From contig DYFG01000001.1 of the NCBI GenBank assembly GCA_020725315.1, positions 17,015-81,014 on the forward strand: a stretch of DNA of 64,000 bases, given 5' to 3'. The notes beneath the pieces are model-generated. The model did not search any database. It was not told the DNA's origin and saw nothing but the letters and a program-made list of their open reading frames with translations. Position 1 is the first letter of the stretch. The number at the start of each line of letters is the position of its first letter. This DNA is from Nitrosotalea sp. GTDB taxonomy: Archaea; Halobacteriota; Syntropharchaeia; Alkanophagales; Methanospirareceae. This document shows positions 1-60,054 of this stretch, piece by piece. The translations under genes were made by a program, and so were the position numbers.

Positions 1-1576
1 TGAAACAGTAACAAAGATTATTCACAACGCTGCCTTTGACGTAAAGTGGCTTCAAATTCACTTAAATATAGTAGTGAAGAACGTTTTTGATACACTGATA
101 GCCGAACGACTTCTTAACATGGGCAAACAACAGCCCAATGACCTTAAATTTGTGCTGGCACACCGCTTTGGAGTGGTGTTGGATAAGGAGATGCGAGAAT
201 CTTTTGAGGATCGGGTTTCTTTTGATGAAAAACCCATGACGACAGACGAGTTTGAGTACATTATTCACGATGTAGAGCATCTACCGCGCCTAAAAGCAGC
301 ACAAGTGGCTGAAATTTCTAAGAAAGCACTTGGAAGGGTGTTGAAAATTGAATTAGATTTGCTTCCGATAGTAATTCAGATGGAAACTAAGGGAGTTAGG
401 TGTGATGTAGACCTGTGGGAACAGTATTTACCACAGTTTTCAGAACAGGTAAACTTGTATGAGACAAAATTACGCGAGTTTTTAGGAGAAGGTTACGTTC
501 TGCCTGTGCAGCGTACAAAAAAGGGCGAACAAGTTGTTGTGGAAGTGCCTGTAGAAGATATTAACTACGGTAGCCCGCAACAAATCAACGCCCTGTTTGC
601 TCAACTGGGTATTGATGTGCCCAATACTTCTGCCCCAACCCTGACAGAATGGTTAGAAGAAAATAAAGATCACCCTAATGCAAGGTTTGTAGACTATTTG
701 TTGGCTTTTAGACACTGGCAAAAGCTGTCAGGATGGAACTATCCTAAATATGTACATCCTGTAACGGGTATGGTACATCCCCAATGGAACCAGTTAGGGC
801 CGGGTACGGGTAGGCTTTCTTGTAGCAATCCAAACTTACAGAATGTTCCTCGCCCTACCCCAGGGGAACCTAATCTTAGAAATCTGTGGATACCAGACAC
901 CAAAGACTACGTAATCTTGGGCGCAGACTATTCCCAACAAGAACCAAGAATTTTTGCTCATCTTTGTCAAGACCCTGCTATGATAGAGGCGTGTAATAAC
1001 GAAGATGTGTATATTGAATTTGCTAAGCATATGTTTGGCAGGACGGTTGAAAAGGACAGCGAAGAACGGCACATAGCCAAACAATTTGTATTGGCAGTTG
1101 GGTATGGTGCTGGCGCTCAGAAGCTACATAAAACTTCTGGTCTACCTCTAAAAGAGTGTGAGCGTATTCGTAACATCATTCGAGACACCTTCCCTATAAT
1201 GGTGGCTTGGAGTCAAGAACAATACCGAAAAGTAATGACGTATGGACACACACGCACAGCAATAGGCAGAATAAGATACTTGACTACCGCTTATGATAGG
1301 AAGTTTACTAACGCTGTAAACTCTCCGGTACAGGGTACCGCAGCAGATATGACAAAGTACGCTATCGTTCGGTGTAATAACTACCTAGAGAGACACAACA
1401 TAGATGCAAGAATATGGCTTACAGTTCACGATGAAATTGAAATTCAGGTACCAAAAGCACTTGCGGAATCTCTGTTACCTGCTATAATTAATGAGATGGA
1501 AGAGGCAGGTAAAGAAATCTGTCCTTCTGTCTTACATGTTGCGGAAGGTAAGATTTATGAGGTATGGGACAAGTAA
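1..1576 (+). CDS. polA: DNA polymerase I, family A (3'-5' exo plus polymerase domains), 5' end truncated by the window edge
   Basis: The frame stays open from nt 2, upstream of the listed GTG at 74. The window starts inside the exo motif (HNAAFDVKWL). Polymerase motif B is KQFVLAVGYGAG and motif C is LTVHDEIEI. Confidence 0.85.
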   Translation, partial: ETVTKIIHNAAFDVKWLQIHLNIVVKNVFDTLIAERLLNMGKQQPNDLKFVLAHRFGVVLDKEMRESFEDRVSFDEKPMTTDEFEYIIHDVEHLPRLKAAQVAEISKKALGRVLKIELDLLPIVIQMETKGVRCDVDLWEQYLPQFSEQVNLYETKLREFLGEGYVLPVQRTKKGEQVVVEVPVEDINYGSPQQINALFAQLGIDVPNTSAPTLTEWLEENKDHPNARFVDYLLAFRHWQKLSGWNYPKYVHPVTGMVHPQWNQLGPGTGRLSCSNPNLQNVPRPTPGEPNLRNLWIPDTKDYVILGADYSQQEPRIFAHLCQDPAMIEACNNEDVYIEFAKHMFGRTVEKDSEERHIAKQFVLAVGYGAGAQKLHKTSGLPLKECERIRNIIRDTFPIMVAWSQEQYRKVMTYGHTRTAIGRIRYLTTAYDRKFTNAVNSPVQGTAADMTKYAIVRCNNYLERHNIDARIWLTVHDEIEIQVPKALAESLLPAIINEMEEAGKEICPSVLHVAEGKIYEVWDK

Positions 1577-3446: not shown

Positions 3447-4397
3447 ATGTCAGTAGTTCCGTACAAAAAGAAAGATACTGCACTAGAAGTCCTGCTAGGC
3501 TCTCTAGACTCTATGTCATCTAGGGTGGCCTACAAGGGGGCAGTTACCTCATTTATCCGTTGGTATCAGCAGACAGGGCAGGCAGACGCCTATCGTGGTG
3601 TGCTGGCGTGGAAGGCGTATATGCGAGACGATCTAGGGCTTGCAGCAGCTACTATCAACGCCAAGCTGTCGGCGGTGCGTCGTTACTTTGCTACGGCAGC
3701 GTCCCTTAACCTGATTGATGCACGTATGGCTACTGCTATTCAGGGGATTGGGAACGTTGCCAGCGAAGGAAAACGTCTTGCCACGTGGCTTAGCAAAGAG
3801 AAGGCGACCGAGCTTCTTAACCTGCCTGATGTAGAAACTCCTACAGGTAGTCGAGACTACGCTATCCTGAGTTTGTTGGTAGGCGTGGCCCTTCGTCGTG
3901 GAGAGCTAATTTCTTTGACCTGGGGGCAGTTTGAGAAAGTAGAAGATAGTGGTGGAGTGTTTTGGATCATCCGTGATCTCCGCCGCAAGCGAAATCGTAC
4001 TCAATCAATCCCCGTACCAGGGTGGACGATTGATGCCCTGCTCCATTATGCCAGTTTTTTACCAGAAGATAAGAAAACTTTTAACGGTCGCGTGTTCTTG
4101 TCTTACGTGAATAATGAGTGGGGAAACTCAATCTCTGAGAAAGCAATCTATAACATTGTCTCGCAGTACGGAGAGAAGTTGGGTGTGCCAGAACTTGCCC
4201 CTCACGACCTTCGCCGTACCTGGGCGGCACTAGCTTATAAAGGGAATGCTGATCTACTAGCTATTCAGGAAACGTTGGGACATTCAAATATTGAAACGAC
4301 CCGTCGTTATCTAGCTGAACTTTCTGTATTTGAAAATGACTCAGTGTATAAAACTGGGCTTGACAACCCGAACAGAAGCTTGTACAATGATAGTTGA
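3447..4397 (+). CDS. int: tyrosine recombinase / phage integrase family protein
   Basis: C-terminal catalytic region APHDLRRTW ... LGHSNIETTRRYL (H-x-x-R ... Y). Strong RBS GAAAGGAG upstream of the ATG. Confidence 0.85.
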   Translation: MSVVPYKKKDTALEVLLGSLDSMSSRVAYKGAVTSFIRWYQQTGQADAYRGVLAWKAYMRDDLGLAAATINAKLSAVRRYFATAASLNLIDARMATAIQGIGNVASEGKRLATWLSKEKATELLNLPDVETPTGSRDYAILSLLVGVALRRGELISLTWGQFEKVEDSGGVFWIIRDLRRKRNRTQSIPVPGWTIDALLHYASFLPEDKKTFNGRVFLSYVNNEWGNSISEKAIYNIVSQYGEKLGVPELAPHDLRRTWAALAYKGNADLLAIQETLGHSNIETTRRYLAELSVFENDSVYKTGLDNPNRSLYNDS

Positions 4398-26154: not shown

Positions 26155-26515
26155 CCAGTTGGAATGTCCCGTAGCAGCCCCCAAGCTGCTCAAGGCGAAA
26201 TCAACTGTCGTGCTTTGCTCCAACTGCAAAGCGTGGATCACTCGCTATCCGACTTTTCTCGGATATGACGACATGGATCACTGTGAGCGATGCGGTTGCA
26301 CCAGCGTCATTATGCGCGAGGGCCGTCCCTATGGTCCGAAATCGGGCTTGTGGGATTGGATCGTCGCTGAGTTTCGCGAAGTGTTCTCCCACCTCGACAC
26401 GTGGGAGTTCGAGTCCGTTATCTGTGATCCGCCAATCGAGTCGCTCGACTGGAAGGCCATTGACGACTGGTTCAATGAAAACGACTTCCACCGTGCGCCT
26501 AGAACAGTGGAATAG
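26126..26515 (+). CDS. hypothetical Cys/His-containing protein (GC-rich island; start possibly ATG at 26147)
   Basis: 129-aa ORF with CPV ... CSNC ... HCERCGC. GC is clearly above backbone. Confidence 0.4.
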   Translation: MFTKGVTMIDQLECPVAAPKLLKAKSTVVLCSNCKAWITRYPTFLGYDDMDHCERCGCTSVIMREGRPYGPKSGLWDWIVAEFREVFSHLDTWEFESVICDPPIESLDWKAIDDWFNENDFHRAPRTVE

Positions 26516-26518
26516 GTT

Positions 26519-26770
26519 ATGCGAATAGGGGAACACGAAATGAACGCAGCAGAAATTGAACAAAAGCTTGAGCAGTTAGAGCGCAAGCTTGCCCAAGCAG
26601 AGTCGGAACAAGAGAAACTAATCTCCATCATCATGCAAGAAACGGATGTATGCCTGTTTGGTGGCGGCGCTATGCGGGACGGACTCCCCCGCCGCAACAG
26701 TTGCCGCTTTGGGCATCCAGGCTGTGCGTGCGCTGATTGGATTGACGCGCACCGACCAGATAACGTATGA
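26519..26770 (+). CDS. hypothetical coiled-coil protein (GC-rich island)
   Basis: 83 aa, AEIEQKLEQLERKLAQAESEQEKL. Confidence 0.3.
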   Translation: MRIGEHEMNAAEIEQKLEQLERKLAQAESEQEKLISIIMQETDVCLFGGGAMRDGLPRRNSCRFGHPGCACADWIDAHRPDNV

Positions 26771-26807
26771 GAAGGCAGCTACCGGAAATCTATAGGAGAT
26801 GTGGTTA

Positions 26808-27068
26808 ATGCCCACCCTTTACTACCATCCCCGCCGAGGGGGAAAGGCGACGAAAGTGGCAGCAAACAGACTGGCAGTATTGGACACCATTCGAGAGCGC
26901 ACAGAAGCAGAGACACCGCCGGAATGGATCAAGCCGCTGCTGATCATTGAGGCGCTGGTGACTGAGATTGACGCGCTCAAATCTGAGATCGAACTGCTGC
27001 GTGCCGAACTGGGCAACCGTCCCGCCGAGGGCGCCAAGCCTGCGGACGTGTGGCCTGACCGCTGGTAG
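26808..27068 (+). CDS. hypothetical protein (GC-rich island; start taken at the ATG 9 nt after RBS TAGGAGA)
   Basis: 86 aa with C-terminal coiled coil EIDALKSEIELLRAEL. Confidence 0.35.
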   Translation: MPTLYYHPRRGGKATKVAANRLAVLDTIRERTEAETPPEWIKPLLIIEALVTEIDALKSEIELLRAELGNRPAEGAKPADVWPDRW

Positions 27069-27119
27069 CCGCATCTGTGCACAGTTCACACACAGCGCCC
27101 CGGTGTGTGCCGGGGCGCG
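27069..27119 (+). repeat. copy 1 of a repeated roughly 50-nt element: CCGCATCTGTGCACAGTT plus GC-rich hairpin
   Basis: Palindromic core CTGTGCACAG, then a 9-bp stem GCGCCCCGG/CCGGGGCGC at 27095-27118. It abuts the stop codon of the preceding ORF. Confidence 0.45.
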
Positions 27120-27146
27120 TCACTTATCAGAATAGGAGTACTAAAC

Positions 27147-27644
27147 ATGAAAGGACTGGAGATGAAAAAGTACCAGCTTCGGCGGGCAATTCGGCAGACC
27201 TGCATTCTTTCGCCACCGCCGCCCCACAGCGAAACGGAGAAATACGACGCTTGGACGCTAGGGCGGCTGATCGACTACACAGCGAAGGAACTTGAGAAGC
27301 AGTTGCCCGCCTACGTCCGCAAGATGGAGTCGGTTGCTCATCCCGATCCGTCTCGCCCGCTGGTTGTCATGCCGCGAACTACATCCGCCATCCCGCTCAC
27401 CGCCGACGGATCGCCTGCCTTTCCCGAACCAGAACGGATACGCCGATACGACACGGTGCTGCCGAAACGGTTTGTTGTACGCTCCGGGGATGGCCCGGCG
27501 CTCAATGTCTTCATCGGCTATTCATCGCTCATGGAGACGGTCTACTTCTTTCGCGTCAAACGGTTACTCGACGAGGCGACGATCCGCCGCCCAACATGGA
27601 AGGGGCGCAAAACACCCCTCAACCGCGAACTGCCCTACGCCTGA
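27147..27644 (+). CDS. hypothetical protein (GC-rich island)
   Basis: About 165 aa from the ATG at 27147 (RBS AGGAG). No motifs. Confidence 0.4.
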   Translation: MKGLEMKKYQLRRAIRQTCILSPPPPHSETEKYDAWTLGRLIDYTAKELEKQLPAYVRKMESVAHPDPSRPLVVMPRTTSAIPLTADGSPAFPEPERIRRYDTVLPKRFVVRSGDGPALNVFIGYSSLMETVYFFRVKRLLDEATIRRPTWKGRKTPLNRELPYA

Positions 27645-27697
27645 CCGCATCTGTAAACAGTTGCCAGATAGAGCGCCCCAACCGGGGCGCTTTTTGC
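27645..27697 (+). terminator. copy 2 of the repeated element (CCGCATCTGTAAACAGTT) plus a rho-independent terminator
   Basis: Stem AGCGCCCC (27672-27679), loop AACC, GGGGCGCT, then TTTTT at 27691-27695. Confidence 0.55.
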
Positions 27698-27752
27698 TTA
27701 TGCGAATCGACCGTTGCAAAACCCACCAGTCTCTTATGAGTGATGTCATCAG

Positions 27753-30155
27753 TTAACTCTCGCTGTAGGATACCCATGCGCTAATGAGAGATTGCAGCGT
27801 CGCAAAATGTGCGTCTGCAATTGCCTGTTTCGTGCGAAGGTCCGCGATTGATGAGACAACCACCGCTCTAATCCCATCAATCGCCTCGCGGATTTGGTCA
27901 GTAGTGACACCCAGGTTGGTGCTAAGGTCCAAGCTGGTCCATTGGGTCGGATTAGTGCCAGTGAGTTCTTTGGGTGACATAAAATAACTGTTCGTTACCG
28001 CAGAGGTCACAGAGCCGGTTAAAGAGCCGATTAGCGTATCGGTTATTGTCTGATTGCTGCCAGTGCCTGCCAGGACCGCGATCCCGGTACTCGACCATAC
28101 AATATTTTTTTGAAAGGTGCCGTTGTCCCCATCAATGACCATGCCACACAGCACGTCGCCCAGGAAGTTTCCTCGCACCTTACCATAGGTAGGATCGTGC
28201 CAAAAATGGATAGCATATCCCTCTCCGCCGATGAAGATATTTTCTTCGATCAGCGGCTCATCTTCCGCCTGGGTTATGTCATGATTAGTGTAATAAAGCG
28301 AGTGGTAATGGACTCCGCTACCGCACTCAATGAAACGGTTGCGATAGATATGGACGCGGGTAAAGTCTGAACCAAGACACTCCCAAAAACCGAAGAAGGT
28401 GTTGTACCGGACTACGCAATCAGGCTTTACATGCACGTGCTGGTTGGGGGTTGCAGGTGCAGCAGCCTTAGCTCCCCCGATCCAACACCCTTCCAGCGTC
28501 GCCCCGCTATTTACAACTACAGTGGGCGCATAGCCATCAGTGCGAGTGATTATGGGCTTTGCTCCTGCTGCTGCCTTGAGCGTGCCGCCCGCTGGAATGT
28601 TAATATGATAGCCGTTTACCGTAGTGGCCGGGTCGAGGGCATAGATTCCGTCGGCAAGCTCTACGATTCCCCCTGCCGCCAATTCCGCATAAGGGAAAAC
28701 TTGATCGCCAGTCACGGACATCGGCTCCATCAAGACGGGGTCGGGCTGGGAGACGCCGCTACCGGGGCCAAGATAAAGCTGTGGGTTAGCGTAGGCCGAA
28801 GACGAGATCGGATAACTTTGCAACCCTTCAGGTGATGTTTCTGCCGGGTATACCGCCGCGATTGCCGTTGCGGTATCCTGGTGCGACACATCCAAGATAG
28901 CACCGCGCGACGTCACCGTTTTTCCTGAGCGCGATAAAAAGCGGTGTTGTGTGCCTTCGCACATCACGTCGATGCCGGTCGGCGTCCCCACGTTCAGCAC
29001 ATCGGTCCATCCAGCAGGCACAATTTCAGAGCCGCCAACAACTTGTCGCACACAATAATCCCAGGCCGTATTTGTCTCGTTGCGCCGTATAATGGCTCTC
29101 CACTTATTATCTTGATCACCAATGCGGTAGTCGATGGATACTTCTTCGCCTGCCGATGGGGCGTCATTGAGTACAAACGTAAAACGATGTATTGCGTCGG
29201 CTGACGCTTCATACTGCGATCCAGACACTGGCTCGGTTTCGTAGACGGTGGCAAGCCCGGCGTCCGAATTGAACGGCGCTCCAAGAGCAAGCACCGCAAT
29301 TGAATCCATCTCGAATTTGTCGTTGGTAGATGTTACTCTGGTATACACATCTCCAAGGTTGTAATCATAGTATCGCGGTTTAATTAAGGTGAGTTTTGAG
29401 GTGGTGCAATTAATGTATAATACCAAAGTGTCGGTATAAATCACCGCAAACCGACGCTGGTCGCTGTAATAGCCAGAGAAAGTCTCTAAAAAGGAGAGAT
29501 AGGATGGTGAGATACGGTCTACCGGCACTCCCAACTTTTCGTTGCTAAATCCAACGCGCATGTTAGACCCGCCAGCGGTATAGTTCGTGCTAAATAATAG
29601 AGCTAACCCAGGGACAAATGGGGTTGGGCTTGCGGTAGTCACTGATATGTTGGTGGTGGCAGTTTTCGCCAGTTTGCCATTGGCAATCGAGAGGTCAGGC
29701 GCTCCCGCATCGGAAAATTCTAAGACGCCGGGACCGGGTTCACTTGTGCGTGGTGTCGTTATCGGAGCCGCATCAGCGGTTGTAAACTCATCACGCAAAA
29801 TATAGAGATCGACGGCAAGGCTAAACTGAGTTGCCGCCTTGTTGGCATTACCAGCGAGATCGGTACACACCGCAGCAGGAATGTCTACGGTGACTATGCC
29901 AACATCAATCGTTGGTGTGATCGTCGCTGTCCAGACGGTGTTATCTGCCGTGACAAAGTTTGACATCACGCAGTTGCCGAGCTTCACATCGCTGTACGCA
30001 AATCCGGTAACTTCATCGTCAAACGTGATAATAATCGTAAACGGCCCTTTGGTGGGCGCAACCGCATCGCTCGTAATCGTTACGGTCGGCCCGCTCACCC
30101 CCTGCGCCCCCCGGAACGCCGGATTGTTCAGCAGCAAACCCATCATTCCCGGCAT
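27753..30155 (-). CDS. large virion-associated protein: N-terminal Ig-like region, C-terminal right-handed parallel beta-helix (pectate-lyase fold); putative depolymerase or fibre
   Basis: 800 aa. C-terminal PbH1-like repeats NIFIGGEGYAIHFWHD..GNFLGDVLCGMVIDGDNGTFQKNIVWSSTGIAV. GC-rich relative to the backbone. Confidence 0.5.
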   Translation of the reverse strand: MPGMMGLLLNNPAFRGAQGVSGPTVTITSDAVAPTKGPFTIIITFDDEVTGFAYSDVKLGNCVMSNFVTADNTVWTATITPTIDVGIVTVDIPAAVCTDLAGNANKAATQFSLAVDLYILRDEFTTADAAPITTPRTSEPGPGVLEFSDAGAPDLSIANGKLAKTATTNISVTTASPTPFVPGLALLFSTNYTAGGSNMRVGFSNEKLGVPVDRISPSYLSFLETFSGYYSDQRRFAVIYTDTLVLYINCTTSKLTLIKPRYYDYNLGDVYTRVTSTNDKFEMDSIAVLALGAPFNSDAGLATVYETEPVSGSQYEASADAIHRFTFVLNDAPSAGEEVSIDYRIGDQDNKWRAIIRRNETNTAWDYCVRQVVGGSEIVPAGWTDVLNVGTPTGIDVMCEGTQHRFLSRSGKTVTSRGAILDVSHQDTATAIAAVYPAETSPEGLQSYPISSSAYANPQLYLGPGSGVSQPDPVLMEPMSVTGDQVFPYAELAAGGIVELADGIYALDPATTVNGYHINIPAGGTLKAAAGAKPIITRTDGYAPTVVVNSGATLEGCWIGGAKAAAPATPNQHVHVKPDCVVRYNTFFGFWECLGSDFTRVHIYRNRFIECGSGVHYHSLYYTNHDITQAEDEPLIEENIFIGGEGYAIHFWHDPTYGKVRGNFLGDVLCGMVIDGDNGTFQKNIVWSSTGIAVLAGTGSNQTITDTLIGSLTGSVTSAVTNSYFMSPKELTGTNPTQWTSLDLSTNLGVTTDQIREAIDGIRAVVVSSIADLRTKQAIADAHFATLQSLISAWVSYSES

Positions 30156-41143: not shown

Positions 41144-41185
41144 ATTAATCTCCTTCGTAAACCATATTACTATGATATGTAAGAA

Positions 41186-41222
41186 TCAAAAAACCCCCAT
41201 GAAGAAATTTTCATGGGGTTTC
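41186..41222 (-). terminator. rho-independent terminator (read on the minus strand) between the upstream 356-aa gene and terS
   Basis: Hairpin AAACCCCCATGAA/TTCATGGGGTTT at 41191-41221. On the minus strand it is followed by TTTTTT, the complement of the A-run at 41188-41193. Confidence 0.55.
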
Positions 41223-41460
41223 TACATTTTTCATTTCTGTTGTGCAGTAATAATAGCAACAAATAAAGTGTTTATCGCTTCCTGTAATCTCGGTAGAGGA
41301 ATCTCTGTATGAGTCTTTGTATTTAACCACTCTACTATGTCAGAAAACGAATCTAGTACCTGCTGTTGCTCTGCACGCTCCGCCAAAAGCGGATCAAGAT
41401 ACGACAGCATTACACCCTTCCTAAAATCTTACGTGATACCTATAATGTCATTAGCGCAAT

Positions 41461-42645: not shown

Positions 42646-43095
42646 CTATAGGTTTTTATTATCCAGACGTTCCCTAACGACCCGCGAGACTTCCCTACGA
42701 ACTACAGCATCAACCACATCAACATCAACCTCTGGCTTTGTAGGAATTACTTCCTGATAACGGGTTCCGCTCGGTGGTCGTTCAGTCCATGAGTCGATGA
42801 CTTTCATTGCAACTAGCAACGAGATGATCCAAGGGACCAGCGTTTCCATCAAAAGCGCAATAGCAGCACCATCATCACCAGCAAGCTCACGGATACGAGC
42901 AAGAGTTTCCTCTTCTACTCCAAACACGCCTAGCAAAGACAAGATCACCACCGATGCCCCCGCCCAAAAGCGACGGTCAATCAAAACAGACCCTAGTTTG
43001 TTAATAAAAATCGTCAAACGTTCTTTCGTACTCATTTCTCTACTCCAAAGCTCTGTACAATAATCGAAAATCGTTCTAGTTGATCCATTAACCAA
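42646..43095 (-). CDS. membrane protein (2 TM), possible holin-like
   Basis: 149 aa with WAGASVVILSLLGVFGV and PWIISLLVAMKVI. The holin suggestion is speculative. Confidence 0.3.
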   Translation of the reverse strand: MVNGSTRTIFDYCTELWSREMSTKERLTIFINKLGSVLIDRRFWAGASVVILSLLGVFGVEEETLARIRELAGDDGAAIALLMETLVPWIISLLVAMKVIDSWTERPPSGTRYQEVIPTKPEVDVDVVDAVVRREVSRVVRERLDNKNL

Positions 43096-43448
43096 TGCAC
43101 CGCATCAGACTTTTGGTCAAAGCTTTCTTCTTCGTAGTGCATCACATACTGGTATATCCCTGCTATAGAATACTGCCCATAGTAACTCCCCTGAACACCT
43201 TCCTCTTCAAGCAGCGCATCTAGTACAGATGATTCTACAGCAAACCTCTCGCTAGATAAAAACGAGCCTGAAGGCGGAGACTTGTCCGGCTCAATGTAGT
43301 ACAAACCCCCATCCGGCAAAGTTTTAGGATTCTGCCATACTAATTCAGCAGAAGTATTATTAATCACATACGCAAGTTGTTCTTCAAAATTCATAAGGCT
43401 GATGCCTCTTCTTTTTCTATCAAAATTGTCGTGTGACATATCCTGCAC
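43032..43448 (-). CDS. hypothetical protein
   Basis: 138-aa ORF adjacent to the IS insertion. Confidence 0.3.
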   Translation of the reverse strand: MQDMSHDNFDRKRRGISLMNFEEQLAYVINNTSAELVWQNPKTLPDGGLYYIEPDKSPPSGSFLSSERFAVESSVLDALLEEEGVQGSYYGQYSIAGIYQYVMHYEEESFDQKSDAVHWLMDQLERFSIIVQSFGVEK

Positions 43449-44780
43449 GGTGACTGCTCCCCACGGCTAAAGCCGGGGGCTTCTAGGACCGGAGTCCAGG
43501 CTCGCCAGCCCGCGAGCCAAAATGTTCAGAGATGCATTGAGATCGCGGTCCAGTTTCAGGCCGCAGTAAGGACAGTCGTGGACACGCACACTCAAGTCTT
43601 TCGGAACCACCGCGCCGCAGCCGGAGCATTCTTGCGTTGTGCCTCTGGGGTTAACGCGCAGCACAGCACGACCGGCACTTTCAGCCTTGTACGTGGTGAA
43701 CTGCACGAACTGGCCCCAGGCCACGTCCGCGATATTCCGGTTGACAACCCGGTTTCCGTTGGACTGCATGTCCGCGATGTCCAACTTCTCAAAGACGATC
43801 AGGCCGAAGCGGTTGACGAGCTTGCGGCTCTCCTGGTGCGCGAAGTCGGCGCGCCGGTTGGTGGCGCGCTGGTAGGCATGGTTGAGCGCGCGCAGCACCT
43901 TGCGGCGCTCCGGCGAGCCTTTAGCGAACTGTTCTTTCTTGCGCTGCAAGCGGGCGATGTCCGCCGCATCGCGTTTCATCCAGCACTGGCGCGGGATACT
44001 GTCGCCGGTACTCAGCATGGCGAACGTCTTCAGGCCGAGATCCACGCCCACCACTTCAGGCGACGGGGGCAGAGGCGCGGCGTCTACTTCGCACGAAAAG
44101 CAGGCGTACCAGTTGCCTACGCTATCGCGCCGGATGATGACTGTTTTGGGTGTGCCTTCCAGGGGGCGATGCAGCTTGATTTTCACGGCTCCGATTTTCG
44201 AGAGCGTGAGCCGGTTACCGTCCAACTTCACCCCATTACCACACTGCGGATAGGTGAAACTGTCGTACCAGCCACGTCCCTTGAAGCGCGGGTAGCCGGG
44301 CTTCTCACCTGCCTTGACGCGGCGAAAGAATGCCTGGAACGCCAGATCGACGCGTGTGCACGCTTCTTGAAGCGACTGCGAAAAGGCGTTATTGAGAAAT
44401 GGCTGCTCGGCTTTCCAGCCGGGGATCAGCTTAATCGTATCGAAGCGCGTCAGCGTTTCGCGGTTAATGTCCCAGGCATCGCGGCGCACTTCAAGCGTCG
44501 TGTTGTAAACCCACCGACAAGCATCCAATGCGCGCAGCAAGGCGGTGCGTTGGGCAGAAGTAGGAAAGAGGCGGTACTTGTAGGTCAATCGCATAGCCCG
44601 ATTATACCATTTATGCTACAGGTTCACAAACATATGGCGCACCTTATATCCCCCTGCCTTCAGGCAGAGGTTTTACGGCGCTTTTCCGATAAAGCTGAGT
44701 TCTCCCCAGGAGCATCATCACAACACGCCCAACAGGAAGCCCCACACACCGGACACTCTTCTACCACATCACAACTCAAC
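43440..44780 (-). mobile_element. IS200/IS605-family insertion carrying only tnpB (IS1341-like), GC-rich
   Basis: GC is about 60% or more against a roughly 45% backbone. Right-end hairpin near 43455-43480 (GGCTAAAGCCGGGGGCTTC). Left-end-side hairpin CCTGCCTTCAGGCAGAGG near 44655. Confidence 0.65.
43467..44594 (-). CDS. tnpB: TnpB (OrfB_IS605) RNA-guided endonuclease-family transposase accessory protein
   Basis: N-terminus MRLTYKYRLFPTSAQRTALLRALDACRWVYN. C-terminal zinc finger CSGCGAVVPKD...CPYCGLKLDRDLNASLNI. Confidence 0.9.
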   Translation of the reverse strand: MRLTYKYRLFPTSAQRTALLRALDACRWVYNTTLEVRRDAWDINRETLTRFDTIKLIPGWKAEQPFLNNAFSQSLQEACTRVDLAFQAFFRRVKAGEKPGYPRFKGRGWYDSFTYPQCGNGVKLDGNRLTLSKIGAVKIKLHRPLEGTPKTVIIRRDSVGNWYACFSCEVDAAPLPPSPEVVGVDLGLKTFAMLSTGDSIPRQCWMKRDAADIARLQRKKEQFAKGSPERRKVLRALNHAYQRATNRRADFAHQESRKLVNRFGLIVFEKLDIADMQSNGNRVVNRNIADVAWGQFVQFTTYKAESAGRAVLRVNPRGTTQECSGCGAVVPKDLSVRVHDCPYCGLKLDRDLNASLNILARGLASLDSGPRSPRL

Positions 44781-45185
44781 ACTAACATTAATATTCCCTA
44801 GATAATTTCGATTGTACATATCCTGCAACAACCGCATACCAAAATACATTACCGCAAGTCTTGATAGAGTCAAATCTACCAAAACCTCGTTATTCACGTC
44901 CATAAGAATGACATTGAACGTCTCCAACGAGTTGTGCCAGATAACGAGACGGTTTAGCGCGTCTCCCTCCCGAACAACTGTTTTCCCCTCAACGTGCGCA
45001 AGTGCAGCAGCAATAATTTTGACAACGAACCCCAACAAGCGTTCAGGTTCAATGTACAGCGTCTTTTCTAGCTTTCCTTCTGGCACCAGATACAGATGCA
45101 ACCCGCCCATATTAGGATCAAACCGATACTGCAATGTGTCTGCAATTTTAGTTTTATTCTGTCTGCTAGCCGTAGTAACAATCAT
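44769..45185 (-). CDS. hypothetical early protein
   Basis: 138-aa ORF in the leftward early operon. Confidence 0.3.
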   Translation of the reverse strand: MIVTTASRQNKTKIADTLQYRFDPNMGGLHLYLVPEGKLEKTLYIEPERLLGFVVKIIAAALAHVEGKTVVREGDALNRLVIWHNSLETFNVILMDVNNEVLVDLTLSRLAVMYFGMRLLQDMYNRNYLGNINVSVEL

Positions 45186-48866: not shown

Positions 48867-49077
48867 TGTCGATCAAACTAATGAGATAATAAGTAGAGGA
48901 CGCTATCACAATAATCATTCCTAATACAGCTAGAAGATACGGAAAGAACACAATAGAGGCTGCTATTACAACAGGCACAACTACAAACCACGTAGATATT
49001 GCCCCTAGCAGCTTAACCTTATCAAACTCCCACGCATCAGCAATCCAATCTAAAAGCCGTTCTATTTTATCTAGCAT
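48859..49077 (-). CDS. small membrane protein
   Basis: 72 aa with two hydrophobic helices. Confidence 0.25.
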   Translation of the reverse strand: MLDKIERLLDWIADAWEFDKVKLLGAISTWFVVVPVVIAASIVFFPYLLAVLGMIIVIASSTYYLISLIDNG

Positions 49078-49123
49078 GTTAAATGTACTCCGTCTCTAAC
49101 ATATACCAGAACGCCACCAATCG

Positions 49124-49516
49124 TCACTCGATTTTCGCGTCAATGCCCCAGGCCTGCGCAATTTGCAGCAAGATTTCTGCTGCTGTGTCCCTGTGGCAGA
49201 ACTTGCCCCGGCTGCAATAGCACGCCAGCGTCACGACGCCTTTGCCTTGCAGCCAATTACGTAACTCAGGCGCGTACTGCTTCCAGCGCGCCCGCAATAA
49301 TTGTTTGTATGCTGCGACGTACTGTTCGTCGTCAATCGCCGCGTACTTCAGCGTCCACGACGGCGGTTGCTCGCCAGCCCTCTCCGCCGCCCAGCGCTTG
49401 TGCCCCCCGACGATTTCCCAGCTGGGCGCAAAGAAGCGCCCAATGCCTGTGCTCGATTTTACGGTCGTGTCAATTACTTCGGGTTCGCCAATTCTCCCTG
49501 TGCGTATAATTAGCAT
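49124..49516 (-). CDS. DUF488-like protein (GC-rich patch)
   Basis: C-terminal VTLACYCSRGKFCHRDTAAEILLQIA resembles the DUF488 consensus (valmCaE....CHR.lia..L). GC is about 58% by eye. Confidence 0.35.
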   Translation of the reverse strand: MLIIRTGRIGEPEVIDTTVKSSTGIGRFFAPSWEIVGGHKRWAAERAGEQPPSWTLKYAAIDDEQYVAAYKQLLRARWKQYAPELRNWLQGKGVVTLACYCSRGKFCHRDTAAEILLQIAQAWGIDAKIE

Positions 49517-57117: not shown

Positions 57118-57268
57118 GGAGAAAATAACGTGCCTAACCATCAAGCGAAAGACGATCCCGACAATCTCTTCCCGATCCTATGTATTTATGACTGGTATGA
57201 CTAATCATACCTACCTCTGCACATTGGAAATGGTGTGCAGTATTGGGATGAAAGTAAAGGAGTGTACC

Positions 57269-58192
57269 ATGCCTAAGAAAAATTCGGTTGAACGGCGTAT
57301 CCTAGACACACTGATTAAAGCAGTCGAGTCTAGCGGATTGCTGCCCTGGCAACGTCCGTGGGTTGTTGCCCATCCTATCAATCTTGTGACATACAATGCT
57401 CACAAGTCCGAAGGCACACCGGAAGAAGTGTGTATTAAATACGGTTATAAGGGTATTAATCCCCTGCTCCTGTCACTGTCTGAATTTTCCAGCCCCTTTT
57501 GGTTTACCTACAAACAGGCTACCGATTTGGGGTGGCAAATCCGCAAAGGTGAGAAGTCTTCTTTCATCGTTTACTGGAACATTTTTGAGAAGACTGTCAC
57601 CGATGATGACGGGGATGATCGTATCGTTAAAATCCCGTTCCTTCGGTATTATAACCTGTTTAACGTAGAGCAGGCCGATCCTGCTGAGGGTAAAGAACCT
57701 GCCCCTATTCCTACGATTACAGATATTGATAAGACAGACCGCAAGCGTGATGATATTAAAGAACTACTTACAGCGTCATGGCTTGCGCCTACTACCTTTA
57801 AGGGTACACAAGCAGCGTACATCCCATCACAAGATCGGATCGTGATGCCCCCAGTGGATGCTTTTAAATCCTATGCTCATTTTTATTCGACGTGGGCGCA
57901 TGAGGCAGTGCATAGTACCGGACACATCGACCGACTAGGGCGAGAGGGTGTTGTTAATCCTTCATTGTTTGGTAGTGAGAAATATGGGTTTGAAGAGTTG
58001 ATCGCGTGTGTTGGTCAAGCGATGTTCTGTGCACGAGTCGGTGTGCAGAATGAGGACATGAATAAAAACGACGCAGCGTATCTCAAAAACTGGTTGCAAG
58101 TATTGAAAGATGATCCCCGCATGATCGTAAGGGCTGGATCACAAGCGCAACGTGCAATTGATTTTATCTTCGGTGACGACTCTCCCCGCTAA
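57269..58192 (+). CDS. ardC: ArdC-like antirestriction protein (ssDNA-binding N-domain plus zincin-like metalloprotease motif)
   Basis: C-terminal STWAHEAVHSTGH, matching the HExxH...TGH signature of ArdC/DUF1738. Start at the ATG after AAGGAG. 307 aa. Confidence 0.7.
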   Translation: MPKKNSVERRILDTLIKAVESSGLLPWQRPWVVAHPINLVTYNAHKSEGTPEEVCIKYGYKGINPLLLSLSEFSSPFWFTYKQATDLGWQIRKGEKSSFIVYWNIFEKTVTDDDGDDRIVKIPFLRYYNLFNVEQADPAEGKEPAPIPTITDIDKTDRKRDDIKELLTASWLAPTTFKGTQAAYIPSQDRIVMPPVDAFKSYAHFYSTWAHEAVHSTGHIDRLGREGVVNPSLFGSEKYGFEELIACVGQAMFCARVGVQNEDMNKNDAAYLKNWLQVLKDDPRMIVRAGSQAQRAIDFIFGDDSPR

Positions 58193-59790
58193 AGCTAAAG
58201 CGGGGAGCTTCCCAGGGCACGCTCGCCGCAACCGGCCACGTTACGCTCTGGCGGCCCCGTCCGGGCCGGGTTGACCGCAAGCATCAGGATATTCCGAGGT
58301 TACACTGCCCATCACCGCGATCCATCCGTTGCAACAGCATCGCCGTTCTGAGCTTCGCGGGACACGTTTGACCCACTGGCCTGCGTTTCGTCCCGCGCGC
58401 CCGGTACAGGCGCTTTCAACCCTAAGCGAAGGATGTTCTTCGCTGCGTTCACGTCGGCGTTTTCTTCATGCCCGCACGAAAGACACCGGAACCGCGCTTG
58501 TGTTTTACGATTTTCGGCGTCCACTACGCCGCACTCGGAGCACGTTTGACTCGTGTACGCTGGCGGCACCTTGACCAACTGGACGCCGCGCTCGGCACAC
58601 TTGTATTCGAGCAGTTGCCAGAAGGTCGCAAAGCCGGCATCGTGCGCGCTCATGGCGAGACGCTTGTTTTCGATCATGAAGTCCAGCGTCAGATCTTCGA
58701 TGGCGATCAGCCCGTAGGTGCTCGTGAGCCAGTCGGTGACGGTGTGCCAGAAATACCACCGCTGTTGTCTGATTCGGTCCTCCAGCTTGCGCAACTGGCG
58801 CTCGGTTTCCTGCATGCGCGTGGACTTGTGCCAGATGAACACGCCGGGTTTGGGCGTGCCGTCCGCATTGTAGTTCTGCGGGTTGTTGGCGCGGCGCTGG
58901 CGGTCCAGCTTGCGCATAAGCACGCGGCGCTTCTGCTGCCCTTCCCGATACCAGCGCGGGTTATCAATGGTCGTGCCGTCGCTGAGCGCCAGCAGGTAGA
59001 CCATGCCCACGTCAATGCCAACGGCGGGCTTCTGTGAAGGTTCCGGCTCGGCGTCGGGTATTTCAAGCTGGAGGGCGGCGTACCACTGGCCGCGCCGGTT
59101 GCGCAGCACGAGCACGTACTTGATGACGCTCAGGGGCGGCAGATCGCGGTGAAAGCGCAGACGGATGTCACCACAGTTGGCGATGCGCAGCTTAGCCCAC
59201 CCGTCCGACGTTTCGATGAGTTTGCACCCACTACCGTACTTGTAACCCAGGCTGCGGAAGTGGTAGCGCCCCTTGAAGCGCGGGAAGCCCGGTGTTTCGC
59301 CCGCCTTGACGCGGCGGAAGAACGCTTTATAGGCTTTGTCCAGGCGGCGCATAAGGTCATCTACCGTGTCATAGGGCAGCAGCCCGAACGTGTCCGGTTC
59401 CTCTTTGCGCAGTGCGCACCAGTGATCACGCAGGTCATACAGGCTGATGCTCTCGCCGCGTTCCTCATACGCTTCCTTGCGCATGGCGAGGGCACCGTTG
59501 TAGATTTTGCGCCCCTGCCACAGCAGGAAGTCGAACGTCCGCGCTTGCGCCCTCGTCGGATACAGCCGGTACTTGTACGTCCGAATCATCGCCGCCCCAG
59601 AACAGAACACCCCGCCGAAGATTGTGTGTTGTCTAGGCACACGCGCGCGGCAGGGTGTTCCGTCCACAATCATAACGCACGTATCATGCCTAGACAACAT
59701 TAGTATACCGCACATTCGTTCGCAAAGCAAAATCAGAAAGGAGGCAAGCGCCATTCCCAACCGGGCTAAAACCCGGTGTCCCCTGGCGCA
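58193..59790 (-). mobile_element. second IS200/IS605-family tnpB-only insertion, GC-rich, abutting the ardC stop
   Basis: Right-end hairpin CTCCCCGC-TAAAGCTAAA-GCGGGGAG spans the ardC stop (58180-58210). Left-end-side 11-bp inverted repeat TTGTCTAGGCA..TGCCTAGACAA at 59626-59697, and hairpin CCGGGCTAAAACCCGG at 59759-59775. GC is over 60%. Confidence 0.6.
58312..59589 (-). CDS. tnpB: TnpB (OrfB_IS605) RNA-guided endonuclease family (start at internal Met, MIRTYKYRLYPT)
   Basis: N-terminus MIRTYKYRLYPTRAQARTF. C-terminal zinc finger CSECGVVDAENR...CLSCGHEENADVNAAKNI. Listed ORF is 58312..59760. Confidence 0.85.
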   Translation of the reverse strand: MIRTYKYRLYPTRAQARTFDFLLWQGRKIYNGALAMRKEAYEERGESISLYDLRDHWCALRKEEPDTFGLLPYDTVDDLMRRLDKAYKAFFRRVKAGETPGFPRFKGRYHFRSLGYKYGSGCKLIETSDGWAKLRIANCGDIRLRFHRDLPPLSVIKYVLVLRNRRGQWYAALQLEIPDAEPEPSQKPAVGIDVGMVYLLALSDGTTIDNPRWYREGQQKRRVLMRKLDRQRRANNPQNYNADGTPKPGVFIWHKSTRMQETERQLRKLEDRIRQQRWYFWHTVTDWLTSTYGLIAIEDLTLDFMIENKRLAMSAHDAGFATFWQLLEYKCAERGVQLVKVPPAYTSQTCSECGVVDAENRKTQARFRCLSCGHEENADVNAAKNILRLGLKAPVPGARDETQASGSNVSREAQNGDAVATDGSR

Positions 59791-60054
59791 ATTTCGATGG
59801 GCACGTTAAGACATATGAGGATACAAGCGACAAAGAAGTTGAAGAATAGTTGCATGATATTCACAGATAAGAAAACAAAACTATCCGTTGACGTATCGCC
59901 TAAGCTGGCGCAGGCATATCATATCTTGCGCCAGCATAACAAATATTTGACTATCGTCTCGGAAAACTATATACTACCAGAAAAAACGGCGTATGATATG
60001 CTAGCATGTTTGGGGTATGAGTATGTAAATAATGGCTGGAATAGGTCGTCTTGA
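59776..60054 (+). CDS. hypothetical protein
   Basis: 92-aa ORF. The real start may be an internal Met. Confidence 0.3.
   Translation: MSPGAISMGTLRHMRIQATKKLKNSCMIFTDKKTKLSVDVSPKLAQAYHILRQHNKYLTIVSENYILPEKTAYDMLACLGYEYVNNGWNRSS

Follow-up and report, generated by a model that had tools for sequence, protein, structure and literature searches.

What are two GC-rich (rich in guanine plus cytosine) tnpB genes doing in a phage genome, and do they still belong to mobile elements whose ends and RNA guides can be recognized? The window examined here, a stretch of 64,000 nt (contig DYFG01000001.1, positions 17,015-81,014 of the forward strand; coordinates below are positions in this window unless a contig is named), is a tailed-phage genome, siphovirus-like. 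To judge from their sequences, its two tnpB regions, element 1 (E1, with tnpB1) and element 2 (E2, with tnpB2), are two horizontally acquired tnpB-only insertions of the IS200/IS605 type, i.e. OMEGA systems (for obligate mobile element-guided activity), with ends that can be defined to the base (Table 1). We consider it highly probable that both are non-autonomous IS1341-like elements which entered the phage by transposition of single-stranded DNA and use RNA-guided homing, and that E2 is a hybrid of two lineages, here called A and B (L and P numbers denote related contigs and proteins, respectively).

Both TnpBs carry the HTH_OrfB_IS605, OrfB_IS605 and Cas12f1-like_TNB (zinc ribbon) domains, with Pfam matches of E 1.5e-11 to 1.7e-25, all beyond the curated cut-offs. 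An initial annotation of the window had placed the two reading frames correctly and had recognized their OrfB-type N-terminus and C-terminal zinc finger. The RuvC triad is intact in TnpB1 (D185/E269/D351; zinc ribbon CSGC...CPYC) and in TnpB2 (D193/E298/D379; CSEC...CLSC), and in a residue-by-residue alignment both triads correspond to D191/E278/D361 of ISDra2 TnpB. TnpB1 aligns over its full length with ISDra2-type TnpB structures (E = 1.5e-49 to 2.4e-53), and the homology of TnpB2 to ISDra2 TnpB is likewise full length (E = 2e-40). Indefinable ends or missing RuvC residues would have counted against the initial annotation; the ends proved definable and the residues are present in both proteins. 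A test for nuclease-dead, domesticated TnpB (TldR) was negative, the triad being intact and transposon ends being present in both cases. Both genes are under purifying selection, with a ratio of nonsynonymous to synonymous substitution (dN/dS) of 0.18 for tnpB1 (against the L001 copy) and 0.13 for tnpB2 (against L165). The two proteins are only 31% identical and thus belong to different lineages. The earlier description of the insertions as related therefore holds for their type, tnpB-only IS200/IS605, but not for the lineage of their TnpBs, and E2 is a hybrid.

The mechanical reading frame of tnpB2 extends up to a TTG at 59760, and 425 aa was preferred to versions of 482 and 453 aa on the strength of the closest homologues, also of 425 aa, which begin with M(I/N)RTYKYRLYP. 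The closest relatives of TnpB2 are found in L165 (87% identical), L085 (80%), L166 (79%), L086 (73%), L103 (71%) and L087-L089 (about 70%). Between tnpB1 and its L001 copy there are 43 differences in the first 900 nt and none in the last 228 nt, and of 230 differences that separate tnpB2 from L165 just 3 are in the last 150 nt. The conserved 3' ends reflect either very strong dual constraint on protein and RNA or recombinational exchange of 3' ends. A 407-aa open reading frame (ORF) runs antisense over all of tnpB1 (43578-44801, plus strand), and in two Logan contigs (L014, L170) the gene callers chose the antisense ORF over tnpB; a high GC content may be all that lies behind it. For the tnpB of cyanophage A-1(L), a comparable ORF on the reverse strand has been reported together with peptide evidence (bioRxiv 10.64898/2026.02.14.705889).

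The GC content is 0.595 in E1 and 0.608 in E2 against 0.443 in the remaining window, in line with the contrast pointed out initially. A TnpB1-like protein, 97% identical, is encoded on many contigs, and copies of E1 match window positions 44692-43450 (1243 bp) at 95% nucleotide identity. Besides the window, E1 thereby has at least three further contexts (the L001 type, L008 and L010), some of them phage-like, and the target-adjacent motif (TAM) TTAT is always upstream. The four contexts share no similarity upstream of TTAT/CGG (the slash marks the junction) and none downstream of ...GGGGAGCAGTCAC; in the window the right end reads ...AGCAGTCAC at 43450. Moreover, 37 family members in genome assemblies, nearly all from Chloroflexota, can be aligned up to ...AGT(A/C)GTCAC and diverge completely after it, and left ends of the family are preceded by TTAT, TTAC or CTAT. 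The left end of E1 at 44688 is about 90 nt off the position near 44780 expected initially. In L001 a 'tgtcgtcac' lying 51 nt upstream of the left end was considered as a second right end and dismissed as chance, having no adjoining scaffold. In the window E1 is flanked by the stop codon of one phage gene (44769-45185) and the start of another (43032-43448, or 43394); both genes are left undisrupted and have the same orientation as E1.

In the left end of E1, a subterminal hairpin (about 44670-44651) is accompanied by an outer pairing, GCGCC/GGCGC, and both covary across the family. The left end also contains a promoter-like site (10/12 matches in the promoter scan) with a -35 box TTGTGA at 44629-44624, a 17-nt spacer and a TG-extended -10 box TATAAT at 44606-44601. 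The -10 box ends 6 nt ahead of the tnpB1 ATG, a spacing constant across the family, which suggests that the tnpB1 mRNA is probably leaderless.

The last 100 nt of E1 could be modelled as an omega-RNA scaffold of three helices followed by a conserved single-stranded AG(C/T)AGTCAC tail. Across 28 sequences, pairing at its 18 pairs reaches 94.9%, whereas column shuffles give 64% and slid partners 53% at most; compensatory changes on both sides were seen in 17 of the 18, and RNAalifold independently recovered helix 1 and part of helix 3. A covariance model of the scaffold, R1, of the kind called for in the initial annotation, has its only significant match in the window at 43450-43549 (105.9 bits). 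In 13 IMG/VR viral contigs outside the training set, R1 picks out every TnpB1-family gene at its 3' end (65-107 bits), and the pairs are again 95% paired there. R1 provides a calibrated model for an omega-RNA class absent from Rfam, which at gathering thresholds gave zero matches in the window. Two weak R1 matches were not accepted: one of 12 bits at 58359-58460, due to coding-sequence similarity (scaffolds A and B of E2 go undetected by R1), and one of 13.9 bits at 41185-41294, a terminator-like hairpin followed by a U-run. In the viral contig L184 two R1 matches (2220-2321 and 3455-3556; 93 and 98 bits) lie just upstream of tnpB and at its 3' end, the upstream one being an additional omega-RNA that stands alone, in tandem with the other.

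The tnpB1 stop codon, TAG, sits in the loop of the last scaffold hairpin, so that nearly all of the scaffold is coding. The right-end motif that the initial annotation had noticed within a hairpin of both elements (minus strand GAAGCCCCCGGCTTTAGCC in E1, GAAGCTCCCCGCTTTAGC in E2) makes up the 5' arm and loop of the terminal hairpin. As predicted there, the omega-RNA scaffold of each element abuts phage DNA that would serve as the guide. For E1 this DNA overlaps the possible GTG start (43448) of the downstream phage gene; the guide length of 20 nt is an assumption from known TnpB systems. Since the guide sequence occurs only once in the window and has no TAM before it, the phage would not be self-targeted.

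E2 is inserted in ardC. Its right end can be set at 58173, where the similarity to the right ends of three distant relatives (L093, L094 and L102; 79% identity over the 106 nt of 58278..58173) stops. CCAT is found ahead of the left ends of the lineage-B relatives L093, L094 and L096 and of the derivatives L219 and L220. Removal of E2 restores the ardC frame without target duplication, and a shared CGAA is the family's conserved first four left-end bases. The ArdC homologues P0241 (98% identical) and P0242 (71%) go on beyond ...DFIF with DGYVKTYGEEDKENDD and SGPIGENDDSDS, and the counterpart of this tail in the window, DGHVKTYEDTSDKEVEE followed by a stop, is coded on the far side of E2. The element thus did not land exactly on the ardC stop codon, as initially thought: the present stop (58190-58192) lies within E2, in the loop of the right-end hairpin. 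ArdC is native through ...AIDFIF, and six codons (GDDSPR) and the stop are supplied by this hairpin. E2 went in 18 codons upstream of the native stop, and the last 17 codons, an acidic tail, were cut off. Both Pfam domains of ArdC remain intact, and an anti-restriction gene has lost its acidic C-terminal tail to an insertion sequence (IS). L167, which carries P0241, is 95% identical to the window through ardC and 89% beyond, and is without E2. A 99%-identical copy of E2 occurs in L015.

The architecture of E2 is that of a hybrid, with a lineage-A tnpB2 and scaffold A inside a lineage-B shell. Its left end consists of CGAAATTGCGCC, a hairpin with a TTTAG loop and GGGAATGGCGC, an architecture matching L093, L094 and the E1 family, and is 87% identical to the left end of L219. 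The 5' untranslated region of tnpB2 (about 125 nt) with its long hairpin (about 59590-59715) and the gene itself are of type A, and a simple sigma-70 scan gave no convincing promoter for tnpB2. Scaffold A, present in a single copy in the window, is conserved in all lineage-A relatives, which diverge immediately after GTAAC; of 20 pairs predicted in it by RNAalifold, 8 have compensatory changes. Next comes the remnant of another tnpB, whose translation matches the C-termini of the lineage-B TnpBs of L094 (NILDLAIRPARTGPSGLNVGDGAKRVLGSSLL, then stop) and L096, with omega-RNA B, whose helices covary among the four available sequences as judged by eye. TnpB2 is only 41-44% identical to lineage-B TnpBs, and its closest relatives have scaffold A instead of the window's right-end scaffold B. 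Related scaffolds had been expected at the 3' ends of both tnpB genes; this is the case in E1, but in E2 the shared scaffold (B) lies 14-139 nt downstream of the tnpB2 stop, behind scaffold A. Homology between A and B is plainly visible in their cores.

The events are most likely to have been the insertion of an A-type element within a B-type tnpB, followed by a deletion between homologous 5' regions. The shell left by the B-type element would then comprise the left end, the promoter, the last ~30 codons of its tnpB and omega-RNA B. If the insertion was nested in this way, an intact lineage-B tnpB coding ...NAARNILMLAVNPARTGPPERNVAG would hold an A-type TAM directly 5' of CTCGGAATATCC. L165 has the same layout with a second A-type remnant. 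The association of A and B is not unique to this phage, as a miniature in L219 (IMG/VR) has 24 A-like codons set between left and right ends that are both of type B. This miniature of ~220 bp (L219:12255-12480) is made up of CCAT, the left end, the 24 codons resembling TnpB2 and, from the right end, the last ~60 nt, and lone omega-RNA-B units stand right after CCAT at L220:1968-2067 and 2433-2526 and at L221:5662-5761 (IMG/VR). Lineage-B elements also have, between the left end and tnpB, an ORF of about 50 aa (e.g. MKTSTSVSMSELALSLLSRIVEHFGLNRSAVLEMIIRDYAERNGFLVRDGK), which may code for a ribbon-helix-helix regulator and is not present in E2.

In TnpB2 relatives (50-87% identical), the last 37-40 nt of the scaffold form 2-4 direct repeats with a period of 71-72 nt, each unit being a repeat plus a 32-34-nt 'spacer'; some spacers are near-duplicates. 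These loci have no recognizable transposon left end, and the downstream repeats look like CRISPR-like mini-arrays or omega-RNA arrays. E2 itself has no repeat-spacer array: the terminal repeat is single-copy in the window and there are no direct repeats in 57900-60000.

Table 1. Features of E1, E2 and related loci (window positions unless a contig is named; a slash marks the predicted junction)
Feature	Position	Strand	Remarks
E1	44688..43450	-	1239 bp, 59.5% GC
E1 TAM, TTAT	44689..44692	-	directly 5' of left end; four insertion contexts
E1 left end	44595..44688	-	hairpin, outer pairing, promoter-like site
tnpB1	43467-44594	-	375 aa; Pfam, alignment to ISDra2-type structures
Identical 3' part of tnpB1	window 43467-43694 vs L001:3901-4128	-	228 nt
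E1 omega-RNA scaffold (3' 100 nt, modelled)	43450..43549	-	covariation, covariance model R1
Predicted E1 guide, CGTGCAGGATATGTCACACG	43430..43449	-	position directly 3' of scaffold end
Predicted empty junction of E1		-	...GAGAACTCAGCTTTAT/CGTGCAGGATATGTCAC...
E2	59796..58173	-	1624 bp
E2 TAM, CCAT	59797..59800	-	split ardC frame, E2-free relative L167
E2 left end, lineage B, through promoter region	59715..59796	-	inner boundary approximate
tnpB2	58312-59589	-	425 aa, lineage A; Pfam, homologue starts
Scaffold A, omega-RNA-like	58299..58426	-	overlaps end of tnpB2 ORF; ends GTGATGGGCAGTGTAAC at 58299 (GTGTAAC)
Putative scaffold-A guide, CTCGGAATATCCTGATGCTT	58279-58298	-	inside E2
Lineage-B tnpB 3' remnant, ...RNILMLAVNPARTGPPERNVAGCGERALGSSPL (stop), and omega-RNA B	58173..58298	-	E2 right end ...GGGGAGAGTCGTCAC
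Predicted omega-RNA-B guide, CGAAGATAAAATCAATTGCA	58153..58172	-	directly 3' of right end; ardC coding; unique in window
Predicted empty junction of E2		-	...CTTAACGTGCCCAT/CGAAGATAAAATCAATTGC...
ardC, truncated	57188..58192	+	Pfam ArdcN + MPTase-PolyVal; alignment with P0241, P0242
Displaced native ardC 3' end, (D)GHVKTYEDTSDKEVEE (stop)	59797..59849	+	in frame with 58172 after E2 removal
ORF of ~50 aa, lineage B	L093 ~490-645; L094 ~1345-1500; L096 ~1345-1500		
Mini-arrays of TnpB2 relatives	L085:1694-1805; L087:2084-2244; L088:1263-1494; L103:2782-2993		
Mini-arrays of TnpB2 relatives	L165:1957-2140 (approx.); L166:4255-4370 (approx.); L092:2446-2699		

Neither element is accompanied by a tnpA gene, as had been noted initially. 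A hidden Markov model of Y1 transposases, built from the TnpA genes of related loci, gave a best E of 0.11 among all six-frame ORFs of the window, and a Pfam scan of all 61 window ORFs of 95-300 aa found no Y1_Tnp; a second gene inside E1 or E2 is impossible because the element boundaries leave no room for it. Both elements thus lack the Y1 HUH TnpA of autonomous IS605/IS608-type elements, which the distant relatives L099-L106 do carry. In L008 a Y1_Tnp (TnpA) gene (L008:1-128) lies about 3 kb upstream of a 97%-identical E1 copy on the opposite strand and is a possible in-trans source of transposase for the E1 family. That the elements have moved is indicated by the several contexts of E1 and by the absence of E2 from L167.

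We propose that E1 and E2 entered the phage genome as single-stranded DNA by means of a Y1 TnpA acting in trans from another element in the host cell. The E1 promoter would then give a tnpB1 mRNA, the 3' part of which would fold into the omega-RNA with its three helices and the end ...AGUCAC; the guide would come from transcription reading on into the adjoining ~16-20 nt of phage DNA. The complex of TnpB1 and omega-RNA would cut E1-free phage sites, i.e. TTAT followed by CGTGCAGGATATG..., and repair from an occupied genome would restore E1. Because repair restores it, E1 would be kept after excision and could spread among co-infecting phages. E2 would have entered the 3' end of ardC beside CCAT using its lineage-B ends; the use of the ardC-derived guide by TnpB2 is uncertain because E2 is a hybrid.

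Several points weigh against this proposal. Exact-protein look-ups with both flanking genes of E1 returned only E1-carrying contigs and no genome of this phage without E1, and its insertion is deduced from its composition and from copies in other places rather than from an empty site. The initial annotation had suggested a search for isogenic phages without the insertions, which for E2 led to L167. This relative is not an isogenic empty site: it has CCGT for CCAT and two mismatches in 16 at the first guide positions, and for these reasons it probably escapes cleavage. With no tnpA in the phage, E1 and E2 may be immobile there. TnpB2 may not load omega-RNA B, and E2 would then have no working homing guide at its present site. 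The omega-RNAs and guides are predictions from sequence alone, as are transcription, guide lengths, cleavage, homing, the scaffold choice of TnpB2 and the order of the events that formed the hybrid.

Misjoining of high-GC bacterial IS reads to a phage contig during assembly would account for the abrupt rise in GC at both elements and for the Logan contigs that break at or near element ends. Such an artefact is vanishingly improbable. The E1 and E2 junctions were recovered at 100% identity from four samples (JGI 3300029892 and Logan SRR5011275, SRR28264341 and SRR28264343), and because they are identical in independent assemblies a chimeric contig is ruled out; moreover, they coincide with TAM and right-end positions predicted from unrelated loci, and taking E2 out restores the ardC frame precisely. 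The exact TnpB1 protein is encoded on an 82-kb JGI metagenome contig (3300029892 Ga0246235_100118). The Logan breaks, at 43450 (the E1 right end) and about 58260-58298, were not counted as empty sites because they are probably branch points of the assembly graph arising from multi-copy elements. The elements might also be dead cargo, i.e. stranded IS copies decaying without a transposase, with the tandem scaffolds of E2 as rearrangement debris. The missing tnpA, the truncated B-type tnpB within E2, the damage to ardC and the miniature deletion derivatives and lone lineage-B scaffolds in other viral contigs all fit this. We nevertheless judge it quite improbable, as neither ORF is shortened and RuvC triads and zinc ribbons are intact in both, dN/dS is 0.13-0.18, the E1 omega-RNA region is perfectly conserved against a 95%-identical sister copy, and the promoter and left-end structure are intact. 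Conversely, the phage may have recruited TnpB and its guide as an RNA-guided nuclease for homing or marker exclusion against E1-free co-infecting competitors, in the way of T-even phage homing endonucleases, and the insertion would then persist for the phage's advantage and not just for its own. Every assembly of the phage (four samples) has E1 at 100% identity; the element is intergenic and co-oriented with the flanking genes, has a tnpB under purifying selection and occurs, 95-97% identical, in other phage-like contigs including an IMG/VR viral genome; the phage also encodes a LAGLIDADG-domain protein, so homing elements persist there. Recruitment seems unlikely to us all the same: its mechanism is the same as that of selfish homing, and sequence does not separate benefit from selfishness; a competitor phage with an empty site was not found, and the sole E2-free relative has a mutated TAM and seed.

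A stronger contender, for E2 only, is that TnpB2 works solely with scaffold A, that E2 homes into other IS elements instead of the phage site and that omega-RNA B is an orphan. The scaffold-A guide matches the RuvC-III coding region of lineage-B tnpB genes, and A is conserved with the TnpB2 lineage whereas B belongs with its more distant, lineage-B counterparts. The A-type right end of L165 also adjoins the NAAKNIL-coding part of another tnpB, and the Logan contig L175 stops exactly at the A/B junction, 58298, which hints at variants there. The homology of the A and B cores, on the other hand, makes cross-use possible, and stand-alone omega-RNAs have been reported to act in trans with compatible effectors (PMC10691335); we lean against sole use of scaffold A while regarding it as quite plausible. 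It is doubtful, finally, that the phage elements act as homing or exclusion nucleases and that E2 and its relatives separately capture steps from a fixed-guide omega-RNA to a multi-guide array. These steps would lead from tnpB with its scaffold, through addition of a second, truncated tnpB 3' end with scaffold (the window, L165), to repeat-spacer units of 71-72 nt. If this were true, nested insertion of an IS into tnpB would be what first puts two guide-bearing scaffolds behind one nuclease. The E2 hybrid and the mini-arrays of its relatives are raw material for the question of how CRISPR arrays originated, an idea already in the literature. Our preferred reading remains that of non-autonomous, homing insertions in a phage.

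The phage itself is recognizable by genes for a family-A DNA polymerase, an SPP1-Dit-type tail component, Mom and ArdC (Pfam) and for a tail-fibre-like protein with Big_12 and beta-helix domains; tRNA genes were not found in the window. Its region has no DNA relative among GenBank phages except for a 99-nt tnpB match in Thermus phage TSP4, and IMG/VR contains no relative of the proteins flanking the elements. Further GC-rich stretches (0.52-0.62), neither with tnpB similarity, lie at 26500-29000 and 49000-49500; the former covers the tail-fibre-like gene (27753-30155), and its part 26500-27750 has no convincing ORF or Pfam match. A tblastn search of the window gave no additional tnpB remnants. 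An 853-aa phage protein (35175-37736, minus strand) has a LAGLIDADG_2 Pfam match in the precomputed annotation of the source contig and may contain an intein or be fused to a homing endonuclease; either would add a third mobile element to the phage. The relatives of TnpB1 in genome assemblies (L016-L084) are overwhelmingly from Chloroflexota (Anaerolineae, Caldilineales), with a few from methanogen archaea, which suggests a Chloroflexota host in anaerobic digesters or wastewater, and thus a likely host phylum for a phage that is otherwise unplaceable.

Among known systems, E1 and E2 have the domains, asymmetric ends with subterminal hairpins, target motif and mobility of tnpB-only IS200/IS605 elements, and like them lack terminal inverted repeats and target-site duplication. 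They also show the OMEGA features, an intact triad and a predicted structured RNA that overlaps the 3' end of tnpB and stops at the right end. In ISDra2 a tnpA is present and the motif is TTGAT, whereas E1 and E2 are without tnpA and have the TAMs TTAT and CCAT, respectively. In other respects ISDra2 is similar: its TnpB (Deinococcus radiodurans; PDB 8EXA, 8BF8, 8H1J) has the same triad and zinc ribbon and full-length homology, and its right-end RNA (reRNA) scaffold likewise overlaps the 3' end of tnpB and stops at the right end, with the guide coming from flanking DNA. None of the Rfam families match the scaffolds of E1 and E2. IS1341-type elements and IS608 (target TTAC) similarly have a tetranucleotide 5' of the insertion, TTAT or TTAC in the E1 family, and IS1341-type elements share the single orfB/tnpB gene, the asymmetric ends with subterminal hairpins and the lack of target duplication. 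Compared with these, E1 and E2 are new sequence lineages, found mainly in metagenomic Chloroflexota genomes and here resident in a phage.

Arrays of the Type V-U, TranC or omega-RNA kind (PMC10691335) offer a comparison for the TnpB2 relatives, whose repeats are what serial duplication of omega-RNA segments would be expected to give, whereas E2 has one scaffold-A unit, no array, and is still within transposon ends. The match of TnpB2 to LaTranC (PDB 9JFO) is limited to the RuvC and zinc-ribbon regions (E ~1e-20). As in stand-alone omega-RNAs and in IS200/IS605 derivatives resembling palindrome-associated or miniature inverted-repeat transposable elements (PATE- or MITE-like), omega-RNA B is parted from its own tnpB; in contrast to these, the orphan scaffold of E2 lies directly downstream of a complete, different tnpB and its scaffold. 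A published survey of TnpB/Cas12 diversity has dealt with viruses and with stand-alone omega-RNAs, and also with how arrays originate when omega-RNA segments are duplicated.

Phage-borne tnpB genes are known from cyanophage A-1(L), Thermus phages phiLo, TSP4 and T72 and many mycobacteriophages, and resemble ours in their host-like composition within a tailed phage, in their patchy distribution among relatives and in the long antisense ORF across tnpB. The tnpB of A-1(L), identical to host copies, has been studied (bioRxiv 10.64898/2026.02.14.705889). Against GenBank phage copies the best identity is 47%, and the present phage has two different elements. A TnpB1 homologue (E <= 1e-10) occurs in 402 GenBank phage records, full length in 369 of them, and relatives of TnpB1 occur in 17 IMG/VR contigs, one 97% identical. 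The initial view of these genes as candidate programmable nucleases riding on a phage accordingly agrees with the intact triads, yet it describes nothing unusual. What the locus yields for testing are the TAMs TTAT and CCAT and two compact putative nucleases of 375 and 425 aa with predicted guides. E1 and E2 are selfish elements of an ordinary kind, common in phages, and only the hybrid make-up of E2 and the mini-arrays of its relatives set them mildly apart.

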